Translations under genes and position numbers: made by a program
UHGV virus genome: UHGV-0190812
Source: a virus
Length of the DNA stretch: 18,962 nucleotides
Reading direction: 5' to 3' (one strand)
Shown: in pieces, positions 1,967-16,448 of the stretch
Layout: each line of letters starts with the position of its first letter
Position numbering within the stretch: the stretch's first letter is position 1
The notes under the pieces: generated by a model
Databases searched by the model: none
Told to the model about the DNA's origin: nothing
The model's input: only the letters and a program-made list of their open reading frames with translations

Positions 1967-2064
1967 CTTCCATTAATCCCTGAATTGTTGGTTAATACGC
2001 TTGAGGATGAATGCGAACAATAAAAAAGGAGCCTGTAGCTCCCTGATGATTTTGCTTTTCATGT

Positions 2065-2356: not shown

Positions 2357-2914
2357 TCATGCAGCCTCCCGACGGGCAAGAATCCTTGAGCCGAACGCCA
2401 TCAACTCTCCACGATCAACGGTCGTAAAGTGGCAGTGTGTACGGGGGTATGGGTGCCAGATAATGAGCATCGAGCCTTTATTATTTCCACTGACGGGTTT
2501 CTCAGTGAGTGGGTTAATAAATGCCAGTCGTCCTGCCGTGATGAATCTGACCTCACTGGCGGTTTGTATCGCTTCATGAAACCATCCGACAGATGTGTCA
2601 GCAGGCAATAACATTACACATCCCACACTACTGAATTTGTTTTCAGTGGCTGCCTTTTTCACAAAAGGGGAAATATTGCTGTATGGTGGATTCAACCAGA
2701 CATAACCAGAGGCATATCCCATTGCTTCAGGCCATGAAGTGGTTAATGTGTTCTGCTCCTGTGAGATAAAAAGCCGACATAGTCGGTTTTTTTCGCTGGC
2801 GGCAGCATCAAGTTGAAAAACGAACTCTGCATTAAGCGCAGCAAAAATCTCTGGTGGTGTGCGCCAGCTGTCGCGATGTTCGGCAGGAGTATTGCTTCCG
2901 GTGAAATCAGTCAT
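2357..2914 (-). CDS. phage-type DNA N6-adenine methyltransferase (Dam family)
   Basis: 185-aa ORF with WRTPPEIF, LDAAAS and NPPYS motifs characteristic of phage Dam-type MTases (motif I / motif IV DPPY-like). Confidence 0.85.
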   Translation of the reverse strand: MTDFTGSNTPAEHRDSWRTPPEIFAALNAEFVFQLDAAASEKNRLCRLFISQEQNTLTTSWPEAMGYASGYVWLNPPYSNISPFVKKAATENKFSSVGCVMLLPADTSVGWFHEAIQTASEVRFITAGRLAFINPLTEKPVSGNNKGSMLIIWHPYPRTHCHFTTVDRGELMAFGSRILARREAA

Positions 2915-3068
2915 ACAGCCCCCGTTTATTATTTATCGCCTCAGCCAGCCGCTGTGCTTTCAGTGGATTTCTGATAACAGAAAGGCCGGGAAATACCCAG
3001 CCTCGCTTTGTAACGGAGTAGATGAAAGTGATCGCGCCTACCCGGATATTATCGTGAGGATGCTTCAT
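2907..3068 (-). CDS. small hypothetical protein, translationally coupled between exo and the methylase gene
   Basis: 53-codon ORF below the ORF-track size cut-off. Its ATG overlaps the exo stop (ATGA) and its stop overlaps the methylase ATG (ATGACTGA), as read by hand from the sequence. Confidence 0.3.
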
Positions 3069-3745
3069 CGCCATTGCTCCCCAAATACAAAACCAATTTC
3101 AGCCAGTGCCACGTCCATTTTTTCGATGAACTCCGGCACCATCTCGTCAAAATTCGCCATGTACTTTTCATTCCGCTCAATCACGACATAATGCAGGCCT
3201 TCACGCTTCATACGCGGGTCATAGTTGGCAAAGTACCAGGCATCTTTTCGCGTCACCCACATGCTGTACTGCACCTGGGCCATGTAAGCCGATTTTATGG
3301 CCTCGAAACCACCGAGCCGGAACTTCATGAAATCCCGGGAGGTAAACGGGCATTTCAGTTCAAGGCCGTTGCCGTCACTGCATAAACCATCGGGAGAGCA
3401 GGCGGTGCGCATACTTTCGTCGCGATAGATGATCGGGGATTCAGTAACATTCACGCCGGAAGTGAATTCAAACAGGGTTCTGGCGTCGTTCTCGTACTGT
3501 TTTCCCCAGGCCAGCGCCTTAGCATTAACTTCCGGAGCCACACCGGTGCAAACCTCAGCCAGCAGGGTGTGGAAGTAGGACATTTTCATGTCAGGCCACT
3601 TCTTTCCTGAGCGGGGCTTTGCTATCACGTTGTGAACTTCTGAAGCGGTGATGACGCCGAGCCGTAATTTGTGCCATGCATCATCCCCCTGTTCGACAGC
3701 TCTCACGTCGATCCCGGTACGCTGCAGGATAATGTCCGGTATCAT
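3065..3745 (-). CDS. exo: Red-alpha 5'-3' exonuclease (lambda Exo)
   Basis: 226-aa translation is near-identical over its whole length to lambda Exo as recalled ([54 protein letters not shown]...). Stop/start overlap with bet. Confidence 0.95.
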
Positions 3746-4527
3746 GCTGCCACCTTCTGCTCAGTGGCTTTCTGTTTCAGGAATCCAAGAGCTTTCACTG
3801 CTTCGGCCTGTGTCAGTTCTGACGATGCGCGAATGTCGCGGCGAAATATCTGGGAACAGAGCGGCAATAAGTCGTCATCCCATGTTTTATCCAGGGCGAT
3901 CAGCAGAGTGTTAATCTCCTGCATGGTTTCATCGTTAACCGGAGTGATGTCGCGTTCTGGCTGACGTTCTGCAGTGTATGCAGTATTTTCGACAATGCGC
4001 TCGGCTTCATCCTTGTCATAGATACCAGCAAATCCGAAGGCCAGACGGGCACACTGAATCATGGCTTTATGCCGTAACATCCGTTTGGGATGCGACTGCC
4101 ACGGCCCCGTGATTTCTCTGCCTTCGCGGGTTTTGAATGGTTCGCGGCGGCATTCATCCATCCATTCGGTAACGCAGATCGGATGATTACGGTCCTTGCG
4201 GTAAATCCGGCATGTACAGGATTCATTGTCCTGCTCAAAGTCCATGCCATCAAACTGCTGGTTTTCATTGATGATGCGGGACCAGCCATCAACGCCCACC
4301 ACCGGAACAATGCCGTTCTGCTTATCAGGGAAGGCGTAAATTTCTTTCGTCCACGGATTAAGGCCGTACTGGTTGGCGACGATCAGCAATGCGATGAACT
4401 GCGCATCGCTGGCATCACCTTTAAATGCCGTCTGGCGAAGAGTGGTGATCAGTTCCTGTGGGTCGACAGAATCCATGCCGACACGTTCAGCCAGCTTCCC
4501 TGCCAGCGTTGCGAGTGCTGTACTCAT
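3742..4527 (-). CDS. bet: Red-beta single-strand annealing protein (lambda Bet)
   Basis: 261-aa translation matches lambda Bet as recalled ([66 protein letters not shown]...). Confidence 0.95.
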
Positions 4528-4532
4528 CCGTT

Positions 4533-4829
4533 TTATACCTCTGAATCAATATCAACCTGGTGGTGAGCAATGGTTTCAACCATGTACCGGATGTGTTCTG
4601 CCATGCGCTCCTGAAACTCAACATCGTCATCAAACGCACGGGTAATGGCTTTTTTGCTGGCCCCGTGGCGTTGCAAATGATCGATGCATAGCGATTCAAA
4701 CAGGTGCTGGGGCAGGCCTTTTTCCATGTCGTCTGCCAGTTCTGCCTCTTTCTCTTCACGGGCGATCTGCTGGTAGTGACGCGCCCAGCTCTGAGCCTCA
4801 AGACGATCCTGAATGTAATAAGCGTTCAT
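4533..4829 (-). CDS. gam: Gam, RecBCD inhibitor (short GamS form)
   Basis: 98-aa translation matches the C-terminal 98 residues of lambda Gam as recalled ([21 protein letters not shown]...[10 protein letters not shown]). AGGAG Shine-Dalgarno upstream. Confidence 0.95.
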
Positions 4830-4904
4830 GGCTGAACTCCTGAAAATGGCTGTGAAAAAATCGCCCGCGGAATGCCAGGCTGATTCGGAAAACAGGAAAG
4901 GGGA

Positions 4905-5111
4905 TTAGTGATTCAGACCGTTGCCGCGTCCGTCGAGAAAAACTTCCACGAGCAAGTCACGGGTATAAGTGCGCTCAATGCCGCGATGCAGATAAAGTCG
5001 TCCGCGTAAATTAGCTGATGCAGTCCAGGTACCATCTTTGCGTTTGACCAGCATTCCTGGCATGACCGCACCGCGATTAACGGTCTGCGTTCCGTAATGT
5101 TGATGAACCAT
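4905..5111 (-). CDS. Kil-family (KilR-like) cell-division inhibitor, putative
   Basis: In-frame ATG at 5111 preceded by AGGAG (5-6 nt spacer) gives 68 aa: MVHQHYGTQTVNRGAVMPGMLVKRKDGTWTASAN...VFLDGRG. This resembles Rac KilR as I recall it (HHFGTDE...TYIASAN...VFLGRDG). It is the first gene downstream of pL. The track ORF extends to 5195 with a weaker RBS. Confidence 0.5.
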   Translation of the reverse strand: MVHQHYGTQTVNRGAVMPGMLVKRKDGTWTASANLRGRLYLHRGIERTYTRDLLVEVFLDGRGNGLNH

Positions 5112-5388
5112 AAAAACTCCTGCCCGTAAGCTGGGCTGCTGAACATATAAAGACTTCTGCGCGTATTCAGGCGGTGGATGGCCGCCGGTTGTCATAACTA
5201 AGCCGCCTCGTTGAAGCGACTAAGGTATGAAATGTTGAGTTGATTTCAGCTGGTCACACCGACGTTCACGCGTCCGTTTCATCCCTCGCACTCCCCGAAG
5301 CCTGCTGAAATTCAAGCTGCGGATCTAAGCGGTCATCGCAACGGTGAATCAGGTGGTTGCCGTATCGTTGTGTTGTTGCGATATGGTG

Positions 5389-5431
5389 ATAATAGCTATT
5401 GCTATTGGTGATATCAATACTTATTGCTATT
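5389..5431 (-). promoter_or_regulatory. pL-like promoter with OL operator repeats
   Basis: Minus strand TTGATA (5412-5417), 17-nt spacer, TATTAT (5389-5394). TATTGCTATT copies at 5397-5406 and 5422-5431, the same motif seen at OR. Confidence 0.45.
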
Positions 5432-5556
5432 AGTTGATGTGTTTTGATATTAAATGTTTGATAGCAAAAAGAATTAATTTTGTGACTTGCATCGCATAGC
5501 GATAACTGAAGTGAGGTTATGGTGGTTTTTTTAACGGTGTGTGTGATGAGGGGAGG

Positions 5557-5594
5557 GCAAAAGAAAACCCGGCACGGTGGCCGGGGGCTTTTTA
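5557..5594 (-). terminator. rho-independent terminator closing the repressor operon (tImm-like; bidirectional)
   Basis: Perfect 6-bp GC stem CCCGGC/GCCGGG (5568-5585) with 6-nt loop. On the minus strand it is followed by TTTTCTTTTG, 24 nt downstream of the 5618 stop; on the plus strand by GGCTTTTTA. Confidence 0.6.
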
Positions 5595-5617: not shown

Positions 5618-6475
5618 TCAGCCTACTGTTCTAAAGATGAGAAGTGGTGTCATCCCATACGAATCACTTCCTCTACCAGCTTGTACCTTGACCATATCCA
5701 GGAAGGATTGTAATCCTGACTTGAGATCGTGTTCAGGGAAATCAGGGTTATTGATATTCTGATCTTGTACAGAATCTGGCAAGGCATCAATCAATCCAAT
5801 GACATGCCAGGTACCCGGTATGGTGCCACCATATTTTAAGGCTAAGTCATCAGGATTAATTGTTAAATATTCTTTATCAATAGACATCCACATCAGGTTG
5901 CCATTCTCATCAATAAAATCAACCTGGAGGATGTTGGGAACGATATTAATGAGTTTCTTAACTACACCAATGGTAAGCCCTGGAGATATCTCAATTTCAT
6001 CTGGGGTGAGTTTTCCTTTAAGCTTCGCTTTGGCTTTTGGGGGAAGGTTGACCGTGTTTAATTGTGCTTGGGCTATCTCACCAAAAATAGGCATAATTTT
6101 CTGAATAGTTGACACATCAAAAATGCGCATTTTTCCAACAGAATGAACAACTGAACCAAGATTCTCACCATTAAGTCCAGTTTTAATCATTCCTGCTTCA
6201 TCTAATTTATCGAGAAAATTAATTGGTAATGACCATGAAGCGTCGAAAGTTTTCTCTTGCGAATGTGTTAAGGTGTCGTCAGTCCCCACTTTTCCTTTAA
6301 GAATCTTGACGCTCAATTCAACGGATTTATTAGATTTATCTGTGTCAGAAGTAGTTTGTTTTACGCTCGTCACTACACCAGCATTGTGAAGCTGGGCTGT
6401 GAGGGAGCTAACGCGTACACGGTCTATGTAAAGAAAATCAAATAGTGAATCTGTGCTTTGTTGTTCGAGCTCCAT
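5618..6475 (-). CDS. hypothetical protein, 285 aa (304 aa if started at 6532); repressor-linked cargo, function unknown
   Basis: Long minus-strand ORF between the cI-like gene and pL. ATG at 6475 with AGAGAGGA about 8 nt upstream; alternative ATG at 6532. Appears AT-rich by eye relative to flanking modules. No motif I can assign (no kinase, nuclease, ATPase or TM signatures noted). Confidence 0.6.
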   Translation of the reverse strand: MELEQQSTDSLFDFLYIDRVRVSSLTAQLHNAGVVTSVKQTTSDTDKSNKSVELSVKILKGKVGTDDTLTHSQEKTFDASWSLPINFLDKLDEAGMIKTGLNGENLGSVVHSVGKMRIFDVSTIQKIMPIFGEIAQAQLNTVNLPPKAKAKLKGKLTPDEIEISPGLTIGVVKKLINIVPNILQVDFIDENGNLMWMSIDKEYLTINPDDLALKYGGTIPGTWHVIGLIDALPDSVQDQNINNPDFPEHDLKSGLQSFLDMVKVQAGRGSDSYGMTPLLIFRTVG

Positions 6476-6617
6476 TTTGCCAATCCTCTCTAAATTTTTC
6501 TTTTTCCTCGCGAATTCTTTTTTGCTTTTCATCTATCTCATCGAAAAGTTGAATGAGTTCATCCACACCATGTGAAGGCGTCTCTGATTTCACTTTCTTC
6601 AAAATTTTCTTGAACAT
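6438..6617 (-). CDS. small charged hypothetical protein (59 aa), possible partner of the downstream 285-aa protein
   Basis: First ATG of the 6438-6695 ORF (MFKKILKKVKSETPSHGVDELIQLFDEIDEKQKRIREEKEKFREDWQNGARTTKHRFTI). Overlaps the 5' end of the next gene in another frame. No convincing Shine-Dalgarno. Confidence 0.3.
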   Translation of the reverse strand: MFKKILKKVKSETPSHGVDELIQLFDEIDEKQKRIREEKEKFREDWQNGARTTKHRFTI

Positions 6618-6766
6618 GATGATTTTCCATAGAGAACTGACTGTACAAATTATGTTCTCTTTGTCACATGAAAGCAACTGCACCAGGACAAGCAAAGTGT
6701 GTCTCCAAAGATCGCTTTAATCACATGTTACAGCTTTTTTGTCAGCTTTGGTCCCATGAAGACGCT

Positions 6767-7459
6767 TTACCCATGCTTCCTGTATGTCTGCGGCATGCTC
6801 CCAATAACCTTACCGAAGATGAACACCCGGTTCATCTCGTCTTTCTCGATCGGGTCCCACGGTGAGTAGCTCTTGTTATCAGAGATAACCAGCAGCTTAT
6901 CCTTCATCATTTGCAGGCGCTTTACATGGGCTGTGTCGTCGTACAGAAACGCATAGATACCATCACCGTCGAAAGATTTAACCGTGATATCAACGAACAG
7001 CAGATCACCTGGTTCGATCGTTCCTGACATGCTGTCACCACGCACGTTAATGATGCGGATATTTTCCGCCTTCCTGCCATCGAACATGTGACGAGCATCG
7101 TCAAACGAGTACTCAACCGAGCGTAGAACTTCTACAAACTCACGGTTGATTACACCCGGCCCGGCACTGACTTCTATATCAAGAACGTCAATCTTGAAGT
7201 ATTTTGAATGGCTGACAGCAGGCTTCCCTGATTGTTGACCGTCATTTCTCATCGGGCCTATGCCTGATGAGAGCCATTCTGTTCGAACACCCAATGCATT
7301 AGCTATTTCAACAATTTTTGTTGAGCCGCGCGCGTTGCCGCTTGTCAGTCTCCAGATTGTGGGTTGAGCTACGCCAGACGCCTTTGCAAGAGCGCCTTGA
7401 GACATTCCAGATTGTTCCATCGCTAGGTTTAAGCGATCAGCAAGAGTTTCTTTTTTCAT
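6767..7459 (-). CDS. cI: CI-like prophage repressor (HTH N-domain plus S24 LexA-like autopeptidase C-domain)
   Basis: HTH segment (MSQGALAKASGVAQPTIWRLTSG); Ala-Gly cleavage site (EVSAGPG), Ser in GDSMSG and Lys in HVKRL consistent with RecA-stimulated self-cleavage. ATG at 7459 sits right after a pRM-like promoter, giving a near-leaderless mRNA as in lambda; the track start at 7495 is a TTG inside the promoter. Confidence 0.85.
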   Translation of the reverse strand: MKKETLADRLNLAMEQSGMSQGALAKASGVAQPTIWRLTSGNARGSTKIVEIANALGVRTEWLSSGIGPMRNDGQQSGKPAVSHSKYFKIDVLDIEVSAGPGVINREFVEVLRSVEYSFDDARHMFDGRKAENIRIINVRGDSMSGTIEPGDLLFVDITVKSFDGDGIYAFLYDDTAHVKRLQMMKDKLLVISDNKSYSPWDPIEKDEMNRVFIFGKVIGSMPQTYRKHG

Positions 7460-7461
7460 AA

Positions 7462-7560
7462 GTTTTAATTTATACGCTTGCGTATTGATGGTCAAAACAC
7501 GTTTTGCTATTGCTTGAATTAATACGCATTGCTATTATTCATTCATTGCAATACCAATAG
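7462..7560. promoter_or_regulatory. OR region: divergent pRM-like and pR-like promoters with operator repeats
   Basis: pR (+): TTGCTT 7510-7515, 17-nt spacer, TATTAT 7533-7538. pRM (-): TTGACC (rc of 7490-7495), 16-nt spacer, ATAAAT (rc of 7468-7473). TTGCTATT motif at 7504-7511 and 7529-7536 overlaps pR -35/-10; a third palindromic site CATTGCAATA near 7544-7553. Confidence 0.5.
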
Positions 7561-7563
7561 GAA

Positions 7564-7797
7564 TTGATAATGACAAATCAAACCATTCAACTCGCAATCA
7601 GTATTACAGGTAGTCAAAAACGACTGGCAGATCTATGCGGTGTAGCCCAACCCACAGTTTGGCGTTGGCTACACGGTGGCGGAATTGATGCCCGCTATGT
7701 AATGAAAATTGTCTCAGCCACTGGTGGAAAGATTAAACCAGCAGATATTCGTCCCGACCTCGCACCATTGTTTAACGCGAGTAATTCTGCCGCCTAA
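7564..7797 (+). CDS. cro: Cro-like repressor (YdaS/Cro HTH family)
   Basis: 77-aa ORF immediately downstream of pR; HTH segment SQKRLADLCGVAQPTVWRWLHGG; AGGA Shine-Dalgarno. Confidence 0.75.
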   Translation: MIMTNQTIQLAISITGSQKRLADLCGVAQPTVWRWLHGGGIDARYVMKIVSATGGKIKPADIRPDLAPLFNASNSAA

Positions 7798-7821
7798 ACT
7801 GCGGCGTTAACTGATAAGGCA

Positions 7822-8367
7822 ATGACTATGCAACCACTTACATACCAACAGACTAGCGGATTTAGCCCGACTGCGGTGATAAATCGTTCTCAAACAAAAC
7901 AGGCGCCAGGCCACGAAAAAATCCGTGATGCCGTTCGCGCCTGGTCGGCTGCAGATAATCAGGATGTTGTTGCCGCACTCATTGTGAATGAGTATCGGGA
8001 GCAGGGCGGCGGCACCATCGATTTCCCTGATGATGTCAGCCGTGCACGCCAGAAGCTGTTCCGCTTCCTCGATAACAAATTCGATTCTGAAAAATACCGA
8101 AATAACGTGCGTGAACTGACCCCGGCAATTCTGGCGGTACTACCGCTGGAATATCGCGGCCACCTGGTTGAGCAGGATAGCTACATGGCTCGGCTGGCTG
8201 AAATGGAAAAGGAACTCAGTGAGGCAAAACAGGCTGTCATTCTCAACGCACCACGCCACCAGAAACTGAAGGAGATGAGTGAAGGCATTGTGTCGATGTT
8301 TCGTGTGGACCCGGATTTGGCTGGTCCACTGATGGCGATGGTCACCACCATGCTGGGGGCAATATGA
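7822..8367 (+). CDS. YdaT-family protein in the cII position (putative lysis-lysogeny regulator)
   Basis: 181-aa ORF between cro and O. EYREQGGG and PAILAVLPLEYRGHL segments resemble Rac YdaT as recalled from memory. Stop overlaps the next ORF (ATGA). Confidence 0.6.
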   Translation: MTMQPLTYQQTSGFSPTAVINRSQTKQAPGHEKIRDAVRAWSAADNQDVVAALIVNEYREQGGGTIDFPDDVSRARQKLFRFLDNKFDSEKYRNNVRELTPAILAVLPLEYRGHLVEQDSYMARLAEMEKELSEAKQAVILNAPRHQKLKEMSEGIVSMFRVDPDLAGPLMAMVTTMLGAI

Positions 8368-8453: not shown

Positions 8454-9383
8454 ATGGCAAACACTGCTGAGATATTCAATTTTCCAGTGCCGGATGTGGC
8501 ACAAAAGGAGCGGCGCGTGGCAGATCTCGACGATGGTTATACGCGCATTGCAAATGAGTTGCTGGAAGCTGTGATGCTGGCCGGATTAACACAGCACCAG
8601 CTTCTGGTCTTCCTGGCTGTCATGCGCAAAACATATGGCTTTAATAAAAGACTGGATTGGGTGAGCAACGAGCAACTTTCCGAATTGACCGGGATATTGC
8701 CGCACAAGTGTTCTGCTGCAAAAAGCGTTCTGGTAAAGCGTGGGATTCTTATTCAGAGCGGGCGGAATATCGGCATTAATAATGTGGTCAGTGAATGGTC
8801 AACATTACCCGAATCAGGTAAGAAAAATAAAGTTTACCTGAAAGAGGTAAATTTACCTGAATCAGGTAAGAAAAGTTTACCCAAATCAGGTAAAGGCGTT
8901 TACCCGAATCAGGTAAACACAAAAGACAAACTAACAAAAGACAATATAAAACCTTTTTCGTCCGAGAATTCTGGCGAATCCTCTGACCAACCAGAAAACG
9001 ATCTTCCTGTGGTGAAACCGGATGCTGCAATTCAGAGCGGCAGCAAGTGGGGGACAGCAGAAGACCTGACCGCCGCAGAGTGGATGTTTGACATGGTGAA
9101 GACCATCGCGCCATCAGCCAGAAAACCGAATTTTGCAGGGTGGGCTAACGATATCCGCCTGATGCGTGAACGTGACGGACGTAACCACCGCGACATGTGC
9201 GTGCTGTTCCGCTGGGCATGCCAGGACAACTTCTGGTCCGGTAACGTGCTAAGTCCGGCCAAACTCCGCGACAAGTGGACCCAGCTCGAAATCAACCGAA
9301 ACAAGCAACAGGCTGGCGTGACAGCCGGCAAACCAAAACTCGACCTGACGAACACTGACTGGATTTACGGGGTGGAGCTATGA
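8454..9383 (+). CDS. O: replication initiator O (lambda O family) containing the origin iterons
   Basis: From the ATG at 8454 (GGGAGGA Shine-Dalgarno) the N-terminus MANTAEIFNFP...RVADLDDGYTRIANELLEA...LLVFLAVMRKTYGFNK parallels lambda O (MTNTAKILNF...NVADLDDGYARL...VLLAILRKTYGWNK). An in-frame upstream start at 8364 is also possible. Confidence 0.85.
   Translation: MANTAEIFNFPVPDVAQKERRVADLDDGYTRIANELLEAVMLAGLTQHQLLVFLAVMRKTYGFNKRLDWVSNEQLSELTGILPHKCSAAKSVLVKRGILIQSGRNIGINNVVSEWSTLPESGKKNKVYLKEVNLPESGKKSLPKSGKGVYPNQVNTKDKLTKDNIKPFSSENSGESSDQPENDLPVVKPDAAIQSGSKWGTAEDLTAAEWMFDMVKTIAPSARKPNFAGWANDIRLMRERDGRNHRDMCVLFRWACQDNFWSGNVLSPAKLRDKWTQLEINRNKQQAGVTAGKPKLDLTNTDWIYGVEL
8805..8917. repeat. 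ori iterons: four to five ~18-bp internally palindromic repeats TTACC(C/T)GAATCAGGTAA(G/A) followed by an A/T-rich stretch
   Basis: Copies at about 8805, 8853, 8877 and 8900 (23-24 bp or multiples apart), plus a degenerate copy at about 8834. The A/T-rich run 8917-8955 lies immediately downstream. Same architecture as the lambda origin inside O. Confidence 0.7.
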
Positions 9384-11111: not shown

Positions 11112-11224
11112 TTGACGACATTATTTATCCGGCGCTATATTCTGTGCGTTGCCGCAAAATCGGCACACGGGATTGGCGTCCCGGAATACTACTCAACGCA
11201 TACCGCGTTAAGCGGTTTTTTTAT
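11112..11224 (+). promoter_or_regulatory. promoter plus ~75-nt structured leader ending in an intrinsic terminator (attenuator or small RNA) upstream of the Bro-N gene
   Basis: TTGACG (11112-11117), 18-nt spacer, TATATT (11136-11141). Downstream stem-loops TGCCG/CGGCA and CGGGA/TCCCG, then ACCGC-GTTAA-GCGGT followed by T(7) at about 11202-11222. Confidence 0.35.
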
Positions 11225-11378
11225 GCGCTAAGCACGGCTACGCCCAAATTATGGTGGGCTGTGTGAGGGCTTCTTCGGGAGCGCCGGGTTTGAGTAGCCG
11301 GTTACGCCAACCTTGCACAGTTCACCACCAGTCGATTGGCGTCGTTGGTGGTGATGGTTAACCTGATGAGGTGATACT

Positions 11379-11939
11379 ATGACTACTCAATTAGCATTCC
11401 ACAAAACGACGTTTACCCCAATTTGCCACAATAACAGAATTTGGCTTACTGCCACTGAAGTTGGTTTAGCTCTGGAATATGCGGACGATAAAGCAGTTCA
11501 GCGCATTTACTCTCGTCACTCAGATGAATTTACAGATATGATGACAAGGGTGGTCAAAGTGACCACCCCTCGTGGAATGCAGGAGTCTCGAGTATTTAGC
11601 CTTCGCGGAGCCCATTTGATCGCCATGTTTGCACGAACTCCTGTAGCCAAAGAGTTCCGCCGCTGGGTTCTGGATATTCTCGATCGAGAAGTTCAACAAT
11701 CCCCAATCATAAAACAATTCACTGATAACGAACTTTGCACACTTGCTTGGTTATGGCGAGCAGGGGATGTGATGTTAACCGCCTGCCAGAATGTTACTCC
11801 ACTTCTTCAGGTTGCGGAGCACCGCGAAGCTGGTCGCTTTACTTCTATCGGGCAAGAATATCCCCAGATACTACATAAGGCGCGCGAAATCCTTGCCAGA
11901 GAAACGGCACCATGTAAAACTCCAGCCTTGGCAGGATAA
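11379..11939 (+). CDS. Bro-N domain protein (putative antirepressor-like)
   Basis: 186-aa ORF. N-terminal FHKTTFTPICHNNRIWLTATEVGLALEY...IYSRHSDEF...VFSLRGAHLIAMFARTPVAKEFRRWVLDIL fits the Bro-N fold motif pattern of phage antirepressors. GAGGTGA Shine-Dalgarno. Confidence 0.7.
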   Translation: MTTQLAFHKTTFTPICHNNRIWLTATEVGLALEYADDKAVQRIYSRHSDEFTDMMTRVVKVTTPRGMQESRVFSLRGAHLIAMFARTPVAKEFRRWVLDILDREVQQSPIIKQFTDNELCTLAWLWRAGDVMLTACQNVTPLLQVAEHREAGRFTSIGQEYPQILHKAREILARETAPCKTPALAG

Positions 11940-14383: not shown

Positions 14384-14748
14384 ATACTTACTGCATCACA
14401 CTACCCTGGCCGCCGAGCAATAACCGCTATTACCGCCATAATCGCGGGCGCACGCACGTCAGTGCAGAGGGGCAGGCATACCGCGATAACGTCGCCCGAA
14501 TCATTAAAAACGCAATGCTGGATATCGGCCTGGCTATGCCTGTGAAAATCCGCATTGAGTGCCACATGCCGGATCGCCGTCGCCGTGACCTGGATAATCT
14601 GCAAAAAGCCGCTTTTGACGCACTCACTAAAGCAGGTTTCTGGCTGGATGATGCTCAGGTCGTTGATTACCGCGTTGTGAAGATGCCCGTTACCAAAGGT
14701 GGGAAGCTGGAGCTGACCATCACCGAACTGGGAATGAATGATGTTTGA
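14380..14748 (+). CDS. rusA: RusA Holliday-junction resolvase
   Basis: 122-aa translation is near-identical to E. coli DLP12 RusA as recalled ([91 protein letters not shown]...). Confidence 0.9.
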
Positions 14749-14878
14749 GTCTTATATGGCAGAACGTCTTCGCCACCGCAGGATGCGCCTGCGCTTATAT
14801 CGTTTCCCCGGTTCTGTTTTGACCGATTACCGGATACTGAAGAATTACGCCAAAACACTGAAAGGAGCTGCCGCATGA
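14741..14878 (+). CDS. ylcG: YlcG-like small protein
   Basis: 45-aa ORF below the track cut-off ([45 protein letters not shown]). Overlaps the rusA stop and the Q start (ATGA). Matches DLP12 YlcG as recalled. Confidence 0.5.
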
Positions 14879-15564
14879 ATACCCAATATTTACAGTATGT
14901 CCGCGAGCAACTCATTGTGGCTACTGCTGATTTGAGCGGAGCAACGAAAGGCCAGCTTGAAGCCTGGCTGGAGCATGCACAATTTGATACTGGTACATAT
15001 AAACGAAAGAAGCCGCGCATTCTGGATGAGGTAACGGGCAAGATGATTACGCTGGATAATCCGCCGATTTCCGGTAAGCAGTCGTACGCAAAAGGTTCAT
15101 CCATTGCACTGGTCAGCCAGGTTGAGTTCTCAACATCTTCATGGCGCCGCGCGGTTCTGTCTCTCGAAGAACATCAGAAAGCGTGGTTGCTGTGGAGTTA
15201 CAGTGAAAACATCAGCTTTGAATACCAGGTGGCGATCACCCAGTGGGCGTGGTCTGAATTCAGGGGGTATCTCGGCGCGAAGAGGGTGGCAGGCAAGACC
15301 ATGGAGCGCCTGAAGAAGCTGATATGGCTGGCAGCGCAGGATGTCAAAGCAGGGTTGGTCGGGAAAGATGCCTACGAATACCAGAAGCTGGCGGAACTGG
15401 TTGGCGTGGCGAAATCCACCTGGACAGAGACATACCTGCCTCACTGGTTGGCAATGCGTAGCTGCTTTATGCGACTCGATAGCGGTGCGCTTATCTCAGT
15501 AACGCGATCACGTTCACAACAAAAGGCGACAAGTTCGCACGTAAGTCTTGCAAAACCGAACTGA
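14875..15564 (+). CDS. late-gene antiterminator Q (QuuD-like)
   Basis: 229-aa ORF directly after rusA-ylcG, upstream of a candidate late promoter and the lysis cassette. Assignment by synteny and length; no motif independently verified. Confidence 0.6.
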   Translation: MNTQYLQYVREQLIVATADLSGATKGQLEAWLEHAQFDTGTYKRKKPRILDEVTGKMITLDNPPISGKQSYAKGSSIALVSQVEFSTSSWRRAVLSLEEHQKAWLLWSYSENISFEYQVAITQWAWSEFRGYLGAKRVAGKTMERLKKLIWLAAQDVKAGLVGKDAYEYQKLAELVGVAKSTWTETYLPHWLAMRSCFMRLDSGALISVTRSRSQQKATSSHVSLAKPN

Positions 15565-15693
15565 AACGCTTATATTTCATGTAAATCTGATATCGTCGCC
15601 ATAGCTTTGTTGGTCGACAAAGAATTAACAGCCTCGCCATCGTGCGGGGCTTTTACTTTACATGCTGTGAACACAAAAAAAGTAACTTTTATG

Positions 15694-15722: not shown

Positions 15723-16367
15723 TTCGCGCCATCATGTTTACGAACAGATATCAAATTGAAATTAGCGCGAAAGACTTGTCATTCTGATCTACATTCGTTA
15801 GGTTGGATGAGCAGACAGTACTTATCGGACTGCTAAGGAAGCGAAATGCAAAACATTCAAGCAAAAGTTACTTATTTCATGGCCTTTGTCGTAGTACCCG
15901 TCTGGGGTGTATGGATGTGTTCGCTCGTTAAATAATCGATCAATCAGTTTCTTCTTAAAATTCCAAGGTTTTCTATTCCTTATCCAGTTACAATGTTGCC
16001 GAATCTAACGATCTGCGCAGACGTTGGGTAACTTTAACTGGCATAAGGTGCACTTTATCGACGAAACTCCAAACACTGCTTCCGGAACAAAAGTCTGGGT
16101 TCTCAACTTTATGGTTGGGATAACTATGTTAGTTGTAGGCTTTTTCGGTACACGCTTGATTAACCAAGTTGATGATATTGATAAGTCTCTCCAGACGACA
16201 CGAGAAGTACAGGCGGCCCAAACAGAAATTATTAAAGGTCTTCAGCGCGACCTTGATAAAAAAGGGCAAGACATTGAAAAACTTAAAAACGATGTTGATC
16301 GCCTGAAAGAAATCAACGCTGAATTGAAGGCGAAGCTGAAAGTATCCAGCACGCTAGATACCTCGAA

Positions 16368-16395
16368 GGTCGCCGATGGCGGCCTTTTTTTGTTT
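16368..16395 (+). terminator. intrinsic terminator (first of tandem pair, tR'-like)
   Basis: GGTCGCC-GAT-GGCGGCC stem (one G-U pair) followed by TTTTTTTGTTT. Confidence 0.55.
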
Positions 16396-16422: not shown

Positions 16423-16448
16423 GCCAGCCTGTCGCTGGCTTTTTTATT
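16423..16448 (+). terminator. intrinsic terminator (second of tandem pair)
   Basis: GCCAGC-CTGTC-GCTGGC perfect 6-bp stem followed by TTTTTTATT. Confidence 0.65.

Follow-up and report, generated by a model that had tools for sequence, protein, structure and literature searches.

To our knowledge, put is the only phage RNA family known to make bacterial RNA polymerase termination-resistant alone. It works in cis on the polymerase, needs no protein factors, and is blocked by rpoC mutations in the beta' zinc-binding domain, such as Y75N. The known systems closest to that considered here have in the leader of the early left promoter, pL, either put (HK022, HK639) or nutL, the latter used together with the N protein (lambda, phi80, P22). 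For lambdoid phages that lack N, the current guess of specialists is that they "may use put" (PMC12315714). The stretch of DNA analysed here, UHGV virus genome UHGV-0190812 (18,962 nucleotides (nt); "the window"), covers the early region of a Bievrevirus-type lambdoid prophage. Its pL leader contains a 99-nt non-coding cassette with two predicted stem-loop domains, referred to as element X, in the slot used by nut and put elsewhere. Judged from the alignments, X is a conserved, structured element with compensatory changes, and we give roughly even odds that it acts in cis as an element of processive antitermination, functionally analogous to nutL or to the putL of HK022/HK639 but forming a family of its own.

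Element X lies promoter-proximal in the pL leader, starting at about +46, in the same slot and between the same flanks as HK639 putL. The X-bearing prophages share the initial leader of HK639 and phi80 pL (ATCGAAACGAAACATCGACAGCTGAGCGAAGTTAGCCAGCGGCG). In one of these prophages (L424), the HK639 flanks are present on both sides (GGCGAAGTGGAG ... TTTACCAGCAGCTCTTTGCGAGGGGCTGACGG), together with the first gene of HK639, and 105 nt of X are found in the place of putL. L424 and a second prophage (L414) have the promoter and operators of phi80, and phi80 itself has nutL and N at that place; in some prophages X is preceded by a promoter and initial leader identical to those that precede nutL in phi80 and HK225. 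A census of the slot in 141 copies of the shared initial leader, in a sample biased by the way the loci were fetched, gave a boxA-type nut in 77, put in 48 and X in 16, and nothing else. In two put-type loci (L227 and L230) a module of two hairpins, H3 and H4, follows putL directly, as it follows X in the window. The genes downstream of X are variable (an HNH endonuclease, a TerB-like protein, unknowns, kil), and X is always promoter-proximal.

The leader of the window is 99% identical to that of the ECOR phage PhiR68_2 and 95–97% identical to those of 4A7, Lambda_4C10, Perceval, 1W and 3W. When the segment 5382–5233 was compared with all fetched loci by nhmmer, close relatives and one divergent copy (in L307; E 6e-14) were obtained. 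A pattern scan added 18 further X copies, with one additional match that is due to chance, and a scan of metagenomes for further subtypes gave two more copies, both of known subtypes. The divergent copies are about 82% identical and occur in prophages whose flanks are unrelated to the window. The leader stretch containing X has matches in 2210 of 5426 complete Escherichia coli genomes (about 40%) and in plaque-forming phages. X is unannotated in all 16 GenBank phages that carry it, and no publication describing it was found in the literature covered, which does not include King et al. 2011, where an X-like mention is possible.

The alignment of X is gapless, with 99 columns and three subtypes. 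The covariance model (CM) of X, CM R2, comprises 99 positions, the helices P1a/P1b/P2 and P3, and 19 sequences, the window sequence among them. Domain 1 consists of P1a/P1b/P2 (5331–5287), and domain 2 holds P3 (5277–5258). CM R2 scores 120.5 bits at 5337–5239 (E 8e-29) and 115–119 bits on independent subtypes. In P2 a double change converts AGCUUG/CAGGCU into CACUUG/CAGGUG with the pairing kept, and in P3 A–U is changed to G–C at two pairs; the loop sequences are unrelated between the subtypes. Of the cells, 94.3% are paired, as compared with 26–41% in slid controls. The same two-domain fold is obtained by RNAalifold, run independently. As a suggestion, the P2 loop (AAUUUCAG) may also pair with a downstream CUGAAAU as a pseudoknot; the changes there are wobble-compatible only. 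With CM R2, one copy per phage is found, and none in lambda, HK022, HK639, phi80, HK225 or the loci of other genera.

The comparison with the N/nut systems begins at the promoter. The only 10-of-12 sigma-70 match of the promoter scan on the minus strand has the −35 hexamer TTGATA at 5417–5412 and the −10 hexamer TATTAT at 5394–5389. The motif TATTGCTATT occurs on both sides of it (5397–5409 and 5422–5434) and three more times in the cI–cro spacer (7502, 7527 and 7553); five matches are found where 0.8 are expected, and none of 200 shuffles reaches five. Because this motif flanks the promoter and recurs between cI and cro, the promoter is assigned as oL/pL. Homology with prophages of other immunity types starts exactly at ATCGCAAC (5382), about 7 nt past the −10 hexamer. 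This breakpoint places the transcript start near 5382 and gives a leader of 271 nt to the kil ATG (5111), in agreement with the approximately 270 nt given by the sequence-only reading, an earlier model-made description of this DNA. The first gene is kil, as had also been proposed there; the match to its profile, PHROG 294, spans residues 1–68, which is the whole protein, and homologues carry PF27398. The same reading had noted that N and recognizable nut sites are missing, and this is borne out. The PHROG scans gave no N-like family among 29 window open reading frames (ORFs), which cover the span xis–Q and of which one was entered in two start versions. For boxA (YGCTCTTTA-like), seven one-mismatch matches are found versus 8.2 expected, none of them in 5112–5435 or near 7540–7830, and the only two window matches to boxB (5-bp stem, GNRA-like pentaloop) are the ori iteron at 8835 and the late terminator at 16438. 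The gap between cro and the gene in the cII slot is 24 nt, which leaves no room for nutR. Compared with the N/nutL phages, the window differs by having no N-like protein, boxA, boxB or tL1 terminator, and it is like lambda in having kil, gam, bet and exo downstream, with gam–exo 97.7% identical.

The comparison with put gives a similar result. Sequences of put were gathered from viral contigs by a degenerate pattern, and a model, CM R1, was built from 11 putL-type sequences. It gives 102 and 93.5 bits on its own training members HK022 putL and HK639 putL; two further putL variants, from L227 and L230, score 93–96 bits, and HK022 putR, absent from the training set, reaches 39.5 bits (E 5e-7). 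The best match in the window has 10 bits (E 0.45) and lies inside bet on the plus strand, which is the wrong strand, so the scan for a put-like RNA by covariance model, proposed by the earlier reading as a check, finds none in the window. The leader holds no put-family member, no put is found by this model in the X prophages, and CM R1 finds nothing in X loci just as CM R2 finds nothing in put loci. A cmscan of the whole window with the Rfam covariance models, with E up to 5, gave no match in 5112–5435.

Element X and put thus have no detectable homology; their helices and loops are different, and X has no copy on the pR side. They are alike in other respects. Both occur promoter-proximally in the pL leader of N-less phages with downstream terminators, both are about 75–100 nt long with two irregular stem-loop domains, and the predicted stability of both is unexceptional. 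The sequence CGGGGAG(U/C)GCGA of X is also similar to UCGGGAGCGCGG at the junction of stems I and II of put, which is noted here as an observation only. The overall architecture of the X phages (accessory genes, terminator, module, kil-gam-recT) is that of HK639. In 8 of 8 X loci with enough downstream sequence, a 7–8-bp GC-rich hairpin with a T run is present 0.7–1.9 kb downstream of X, and it directly precedes the H3/H4 module and kil-gam-recT. HK639 putL is reportedly needed to pass those terminators, as is said of the work of King et al. 2011.

The density of polymorphic sites, 0.070 in the leader, rises to 0.187 in the kil–gam spacer and to 0.25 (kil), 0.235 (gam) and 0.215 (bet) at third codon positions; the leader differs from each of the three third-position sets with a Fisher p of 1e-4 to 1e-6, and has about 3.5-fold fewer polymorphic sites than adjoining third codon positions. 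When the parts are compared separately with third codon positions (97 of 427), X has 7 polymorphic sites in 99 (p 2e-4), the 60-nt module 2 in 60 (p 1e-4) and the segment before kil 1 in 57 (p 3e-5). By these densities, the leader is under purifying selection. This bears on the notion that it is a non-functional scar left by deletion of N/nut or put; a deletion of this kind would leave a 3' half homologous to what follows tL1 in N-type and put-type phages, as is observed. Since purifying selection is strong in all parts of the leader, X is about 82% identical across unrelated backbones, and the stretch with X occurs in so many complete E. coli genomes and in plaque-forming phages, a scar is hardly credible.

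Protein coding was addressed by polymorphism counts in 59–64 distinct haplotypes from viral contigs. The kil frame is open upstream, from an ATG at 5195 in the window and from 5324 in most relatives, where the TAG at 5222–5220 is CAG; in the 4A7-type relatives the frame is continuous into kil, and gene callers often predict a Kil of 96 amino acids. There is also a mini-ORF of 20 arginine-rich codons at 5282–5220 on the minus strand (MKRTRERRCDQLKSTQHFIP; MKRTRERR...), which resembles the arginine-rich motif of lambda N and has a GGGGAG Shine–Dalgarno sequence 8 nt upstream. An N-terminally extended Kil, or a "mini-N" peptide of 20 amino acids, could be read from these features. The polymorphisms do not agree with either: in the kil frame the leader has 7 synonymous and 8 non-synonymous changes, and the other frames are no worse, whereas kil itself has 19 and 3. 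The stop at 5222–5220 is polymorphic, being present in 22 of 59 haplotypes, and in divergent X copies the mini-ORF is reduced to GTG TAA. The arginine codons of the mini-ORF are the arms of hairpin P3, and a protein search returned nothing but this sequence itself and frameshifted versions of it, the longer predicted homologues being among the latter. A coding leader is thus very improbable and was rejected on the polymorphism pattern, the polymorphic stop and the loss of the ORF; by the pattern of variation, the leader is not protein-coding. The earlier statement that it encodes no protein holds as far as selection is concerned, and needs amending in that small ORFs and an in-frame kil extension are present.

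In the mechanism that we propose, X, transcribed about 45 nt after the start, would fold into its two stem-loop domains, and the folded RNA would make the transcribing RNA polymerase termination-resistant. In this phage such an effect would cover possible Rho action in the remaining 130 untranslated nt before kil, and further downstream the lambda-type hairpin 3004–2982 and the terminator 2044–2026; in the relatives it would cover the strong tL1 between X and kil. That X acts on RNA polymerase or on termination, and that it does so independently of protein, we infer from sequence comparisons; we lean to an RNA-only, put-like mechanism because no phage protein consistently accompanies X. The alternative that X is a nut-like loading site dependent on a protein in trans, either an unrecognized phage protein such as a small nin-region ORF or the Nus factors of the host by themselves, as happens in rrn antitermination, has to be considered, since the same slot carries nutL in phi80-type phages, RNA-only antitermination is rare, and the window has unannotated small proteins, for example a 46-residue arginine-rich ORF before Q (14738–14875; phrog_2705). 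This alternative is nevertheless quite unlikely. Neither X nor the leader contains a boxA-like sequence, no N-like family is found in the window or among the first ORFs of the X prophages, the variable genes downstream of X provide no linked partner gene, and the backbone flanks of X match put-type leaders, not nut-type ones.

The terminators of the window itself lead to another alternative, in which no processive antitermination exists or is needed. According to this explanation, the pL transcripts meet no terminator on their way through kil-gam-bet-exo and stop at the hairpin that follows exo, the whole leader, with X in it, is an ordinary 5' untranslated region that serves mRNA stability, processing or the translation of the toxic kil, and xis and the other distal genes are expressed by leaky read-through or from their own promoters. 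In agreement with this, the terminator scan of the minus strand from 5382 to exo shows no intrinsic terminator, only weak matches at 4880–4863 and 4962–4946, and the lambda counterpart of these is inside or beside the gam reading frame. The homology with N-type and put-type phages begins exactly after the tL1 hairpin, so that tL1 is simply missing in the window, and the 5' hairpin and the hairpin before kil are typical features of untranslated regions. N-less relatives with short leaders without X are also known from other genera. This explanation is rather unlikely, as it leaves unexplained that X is found upstream of unrelated first genes and always promoter-proximally, and that X is exchanged precisely with putL or nutL; moreover, other X phages have a strong intrinsic terminator between X and kil, gam and recT, with neither N nor put. 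In the Red region the window is 97.7% identical to lambda, and the shared sequence includes terminator-like hairpins past which lambda transcribes with the help of N. The lambda counterpart of 3004–2982 we take to be within the fragment that carries tL3 (the pKD46 fragment), and the segment with the 2044–2026 hairpin is 95–97% identical in the N-dependent phages lambda, 21 and 933W.

Returning to X as an antitermination element, several points weigh against it. The case is made from position, conservation and architecture, and is a comparative one. The covariation of X comes from three subtypes and few independent events, with most paired columns invariant. By predicted stability X is not exceptional (z from 0.39 to −1.5), and real puts are no more stable by the same measure (z −0.68 and −0.50). 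No second copy of the leader or of X was found on the pR side in the window, unlike in HK022. The fetching bias of the slot census applies here as well. In this phage, where pL–exo is terminator-free, kil and Red have no obvious need of X, and an arrangement with neither N nor X exists in Citrobacter, Kluyvera, Enterobacter and Silvania, with leaders of about 75–230 nt. Of the options left by the sequence-only reading, a literal put is contradicted (CM not above 10 bits), an RNA-based antitermination is the best supported, through X in the putL/nutL slot, and antitermination may be unnecessary for kil-gam-bet-exo or may be provided in trans.

The arrangement without X was obtained in a kil-based search of species-representative genomes, which shows other genera with kil directly after pL, with different leaders and no X. 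In the loci of Citrobacter, Silvania, Enterobacter, Kluyvera and Pseudocitrobacter (L130–L137), most of the genera have kil first after a pL-like promoter, with no N; the leaders of about 75–230 nt share a hairpin, CCGCCAGCCTGGCG, and some have a further conserved insert of 100 nt. The Rac kilR region and other N-less prophages of the YdaS/YdaT type are like the window in having a cI-type repressor, a cro-like/YdaT-like pair, an early left kil and no N; the leaders of the N-less relatives from other genera are different and shorter. Rho is said, in work ascribed to Cardinale et al. 2008, to silence kilR in Rac.

A further-reaching proposal is possible but doubtful: X would be a new class of self-sufficient antiterminator RNA, structurally unrelated to put, that binds elongating E. 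coli RNA polymerase and causes the enzyme to read through intrinsic and Rho-dependent terminators, and would be a third interchangeable solution besides N/nut and put, in prophages of about 40% of sequenced E. coli. The comparison shows a large, viable group of N-less, put-less coliphages, and X provides a concrete, testable 99-nt candidate in the nut/put slot. If X is put-like, it would be a second, independent RNA solution for reprogramming RNA polymerase, of use for studying the RNA exit channel and the zinc-binding-domain surface and as a compact part for synthetic biology, and it would explain the expression of kil, Red and excision genes in very common E. coli prophages, including those of O157:H7. 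If it is not put-like, there are still two conserved non-coding modules not annotated as such, including the strongly covarying post-tL1 module.

The leader is composed of four parts, which are a variable 5' hairpin, element X, the 60-nt hairpin module and the kil ribosome-binding region; as a whole its fold is no more stable than that of shuffled sequences (z −0.25). The stem-loops named in the earlier reading do exist: ATCGCAAC/GTTGCGAT pair 5382–5375 with 5341–5334 and form the 5' hairpin, and GACG-CGTGAA-CGTC (5274–5261) is P3 of X. The 5'-hairpin segment is variable among relatives and is swapped out in the O157-type variant, with homology breakpoints at +1 and about +35; a related hairpin, ATCGACAAC..GTTGTC, is found in other genera. 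A 10-nt match to the core of the ori iteron in this variable part (ACCTGATTCA, 5347–5356, minus strand) was judged to be probably due to chance. The coordinates of the leader parts and neighbouring features are collected in Table 1.

Table 1. Features of the pL region of the window and of its flanks, with the observations on which each is based.
Feature	Coordinates	Strand	Basis
cI	6770..7495	(-)	
Accessory ORFs	6441..6695; 5621..6532	(-)	
Bidirectional terminator	5568..5585		
pL and oL operators	5389..5434	(-)	Promoter scan; operator motif common to cI–cro spacer
Transcript 5'-terminal hairpin	5334..5382	(-)	AUCGCAAC ... GUUGCGAU; fold −8.6 kcal/mol, z −1.6
Element X, 99-nt non-coding cassette, two predicted stem-loop domains	5239..5337	(-)	CM R2; compensatory changes; putL-slot replacement; low polymorphism
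60-nt module	5170..5229	(-)	CAUACC, hairpin H3, UUAUGACAAC, hairpin H4
Pre-kil untranslated segment	5112..5169	(-)	Hairpin GCCC 5136–5133 / GGGC 5125–5122; Shine–Dalgarno AGGAG 5121–5117
kil, first pL-operon gene, cell-division inhibitor, 68 amino acids	4905..5111	(-)	PHROG 294, E 1.5e-36
Terminator-like hairpin just downstream of exo	2982..3004	(-)	Terminator scan; identical to lambda 31265–31287
Intrinsic-terminator-like hairpin and U run, upstream of DksA-like gene and xis	2017..2044 (hairpin 2044–2026)	(-)	z −2.3

The 60-nt module directly follows X. The arms of H3 are 5221–5213 and 5209–5201, with an outer helix of 5229–5223 and 5199–5193, and H4 is formed by 5186–5182 and 5174–5170; the z-score of the module fold is −4.4. 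A distant BLAST search matches 5232–5170 to phi80, HK225, HK639 and phages of Enterobacter and Salmonella, and two pattern scans gave 44 distinct copies of 59–62 nt, with CATACC, H3, TTATGACAAC and a second hairpin within a near-invariant 26-mer. The window sequence 5229–5170 is the commonest of the 44 variants and has the CATACC, the 9-bp covarying hairpin, the 3'-side GAG and TTATGACAACCGGCGGCCATCCACCGCC. The H3 pairing is kept in 98.5% of cells, versus 86.5% in shuffled alignments and 34–50% in slid controls, and 94 cells have double changes, versus 27 when shuffled; none of 500 shuffles reaches 94. Because of the G–U pairs, the structured strand of H3 is the sense strand. An antisense promoter in the module was rejected, since no convincing hexamers are seen by eye and the G–U pairs fit the sense strand only.

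In phi80 the module lies just behind N and the terminator tL1A, in HK639 it is found behind the genes controlled by put and the terminator of these genes, and in HK225 it immediately precedes kil. The 3' half of the window leader thus has its homologue in the post-tL1 segment of phages of the N and put types. In nearly all other phages a GC-rich hairpin with a T run immediately precedes the module, whereas in the window that terminator (tL1) is absent, the homology begins at the last Ts of its tail, and the module follows X directly. The second hairpin of the module is annotated as a terminator in HK639; H4 of the window lacks a U run and is therefore not an intrinsic terminator here. As the role of the module, an RNase III site, a contribution to a Rho-dependent barrier ahead of kil (in phi80 a Rho-dependent tL1B is annotated about 110 nt downstream) and the opening of a short frame, MTTGGHPPP, were considered. 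Other copies of the module are found, for example, at 2490–2552 in locus L004 and 2505–2565 in L005. The near-invariant 26-mer ATGACAACCGGCGGCCATCCACCGCC opens the short frame. Its ATG (5195) is paired into the base of H3, with the invariant GAG 14 nt upstream. In other phages the frame stops short of the next gene; in the window it continues in frame into kil. The lack of synonymous variation argues for a role of the 26-mer at the RNA level; a polyproline, EF-P-sensitive leader peptide and a Rho loading site are ideas that come to mind.

On the minus strand the order is cI, the accessory ORFs, the bidirectional terminator, pL, the leader, kil, gam, bet and exo, and beyond exo the pL operon contains a methyltransferase gene, a DksA-like gene and xis. 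The rightward genes are cro, the YdaT/cII-slot gene, O, P, a c4/isrK-ant immunity module, nin genes, Q and isrJ. The window segment 2912–4911 is 97.7% identical to lambda 31194–33193; taken together, gam-bet-exo-orf60a and the orf61 region (2912–4911 and 1771–2360) have 95.6–97.7% identity to lambda; this likeness does not extend to kil, the leader and the immunity region. The DNA methyltransferase gene (2360–2914) is an insertion relative to lambda, and the kil–gam spacer matches the N-terminal part of the long Gam of lambda. Two low-GC ORFs of 304 (phrog_9699) and 85 amino acids (phrog_29688) at 5618–6695 on the minus strand have the position of rexAB, between cI and pL. In relatives the same slot carries SIR2, DUF6932, ASCH or other genes, and it seems to be a hot spot for genes of accessory or defence function. 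A 12-bp hairpin is present at 7246–7273 (plus strand), within the cI coding region and on the strand opposite to cI. In related prophages a small RNA (sRNA), svsR (co293-like), is placed at the cI 3' end (2026 paper). As identities for the leader, svsR and the Pas prophage sRNAs of the literature were rejected, because their places are the cI 3' end and the late region.

The ori iterons, five copies of TTACCYGAATCAGGTAA, are found inside the O gene at 8805–8921 (plus strand). At 11135–11332 (plus strand) the Rfam models c4-a1b1, isrK and C4 antisense RNA are matched, and a gene for an anti-repressor (Ant) comes next, at 11379–11936 (plus strand); the region 11135–11936 is a P1/P7-type immI module within the pR operon, with its own promoter-like site (11112–11141) and a terminator at 11202–11216. 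The arginine-rich 46-residue ORF (14738–14878, plus strand; phrog_2705) overlaps rusA at its end and Q at its start. Directly after the Q-like gene and a promoter-like site (15548–15576), isrJ is matched at 15580–15653 (plus strand) with 64.9 bits, and it looks like the pR' leader or terminated transcript. Strong terminators are present downstream of isrJ at 16365–16387 and 16423–16439.

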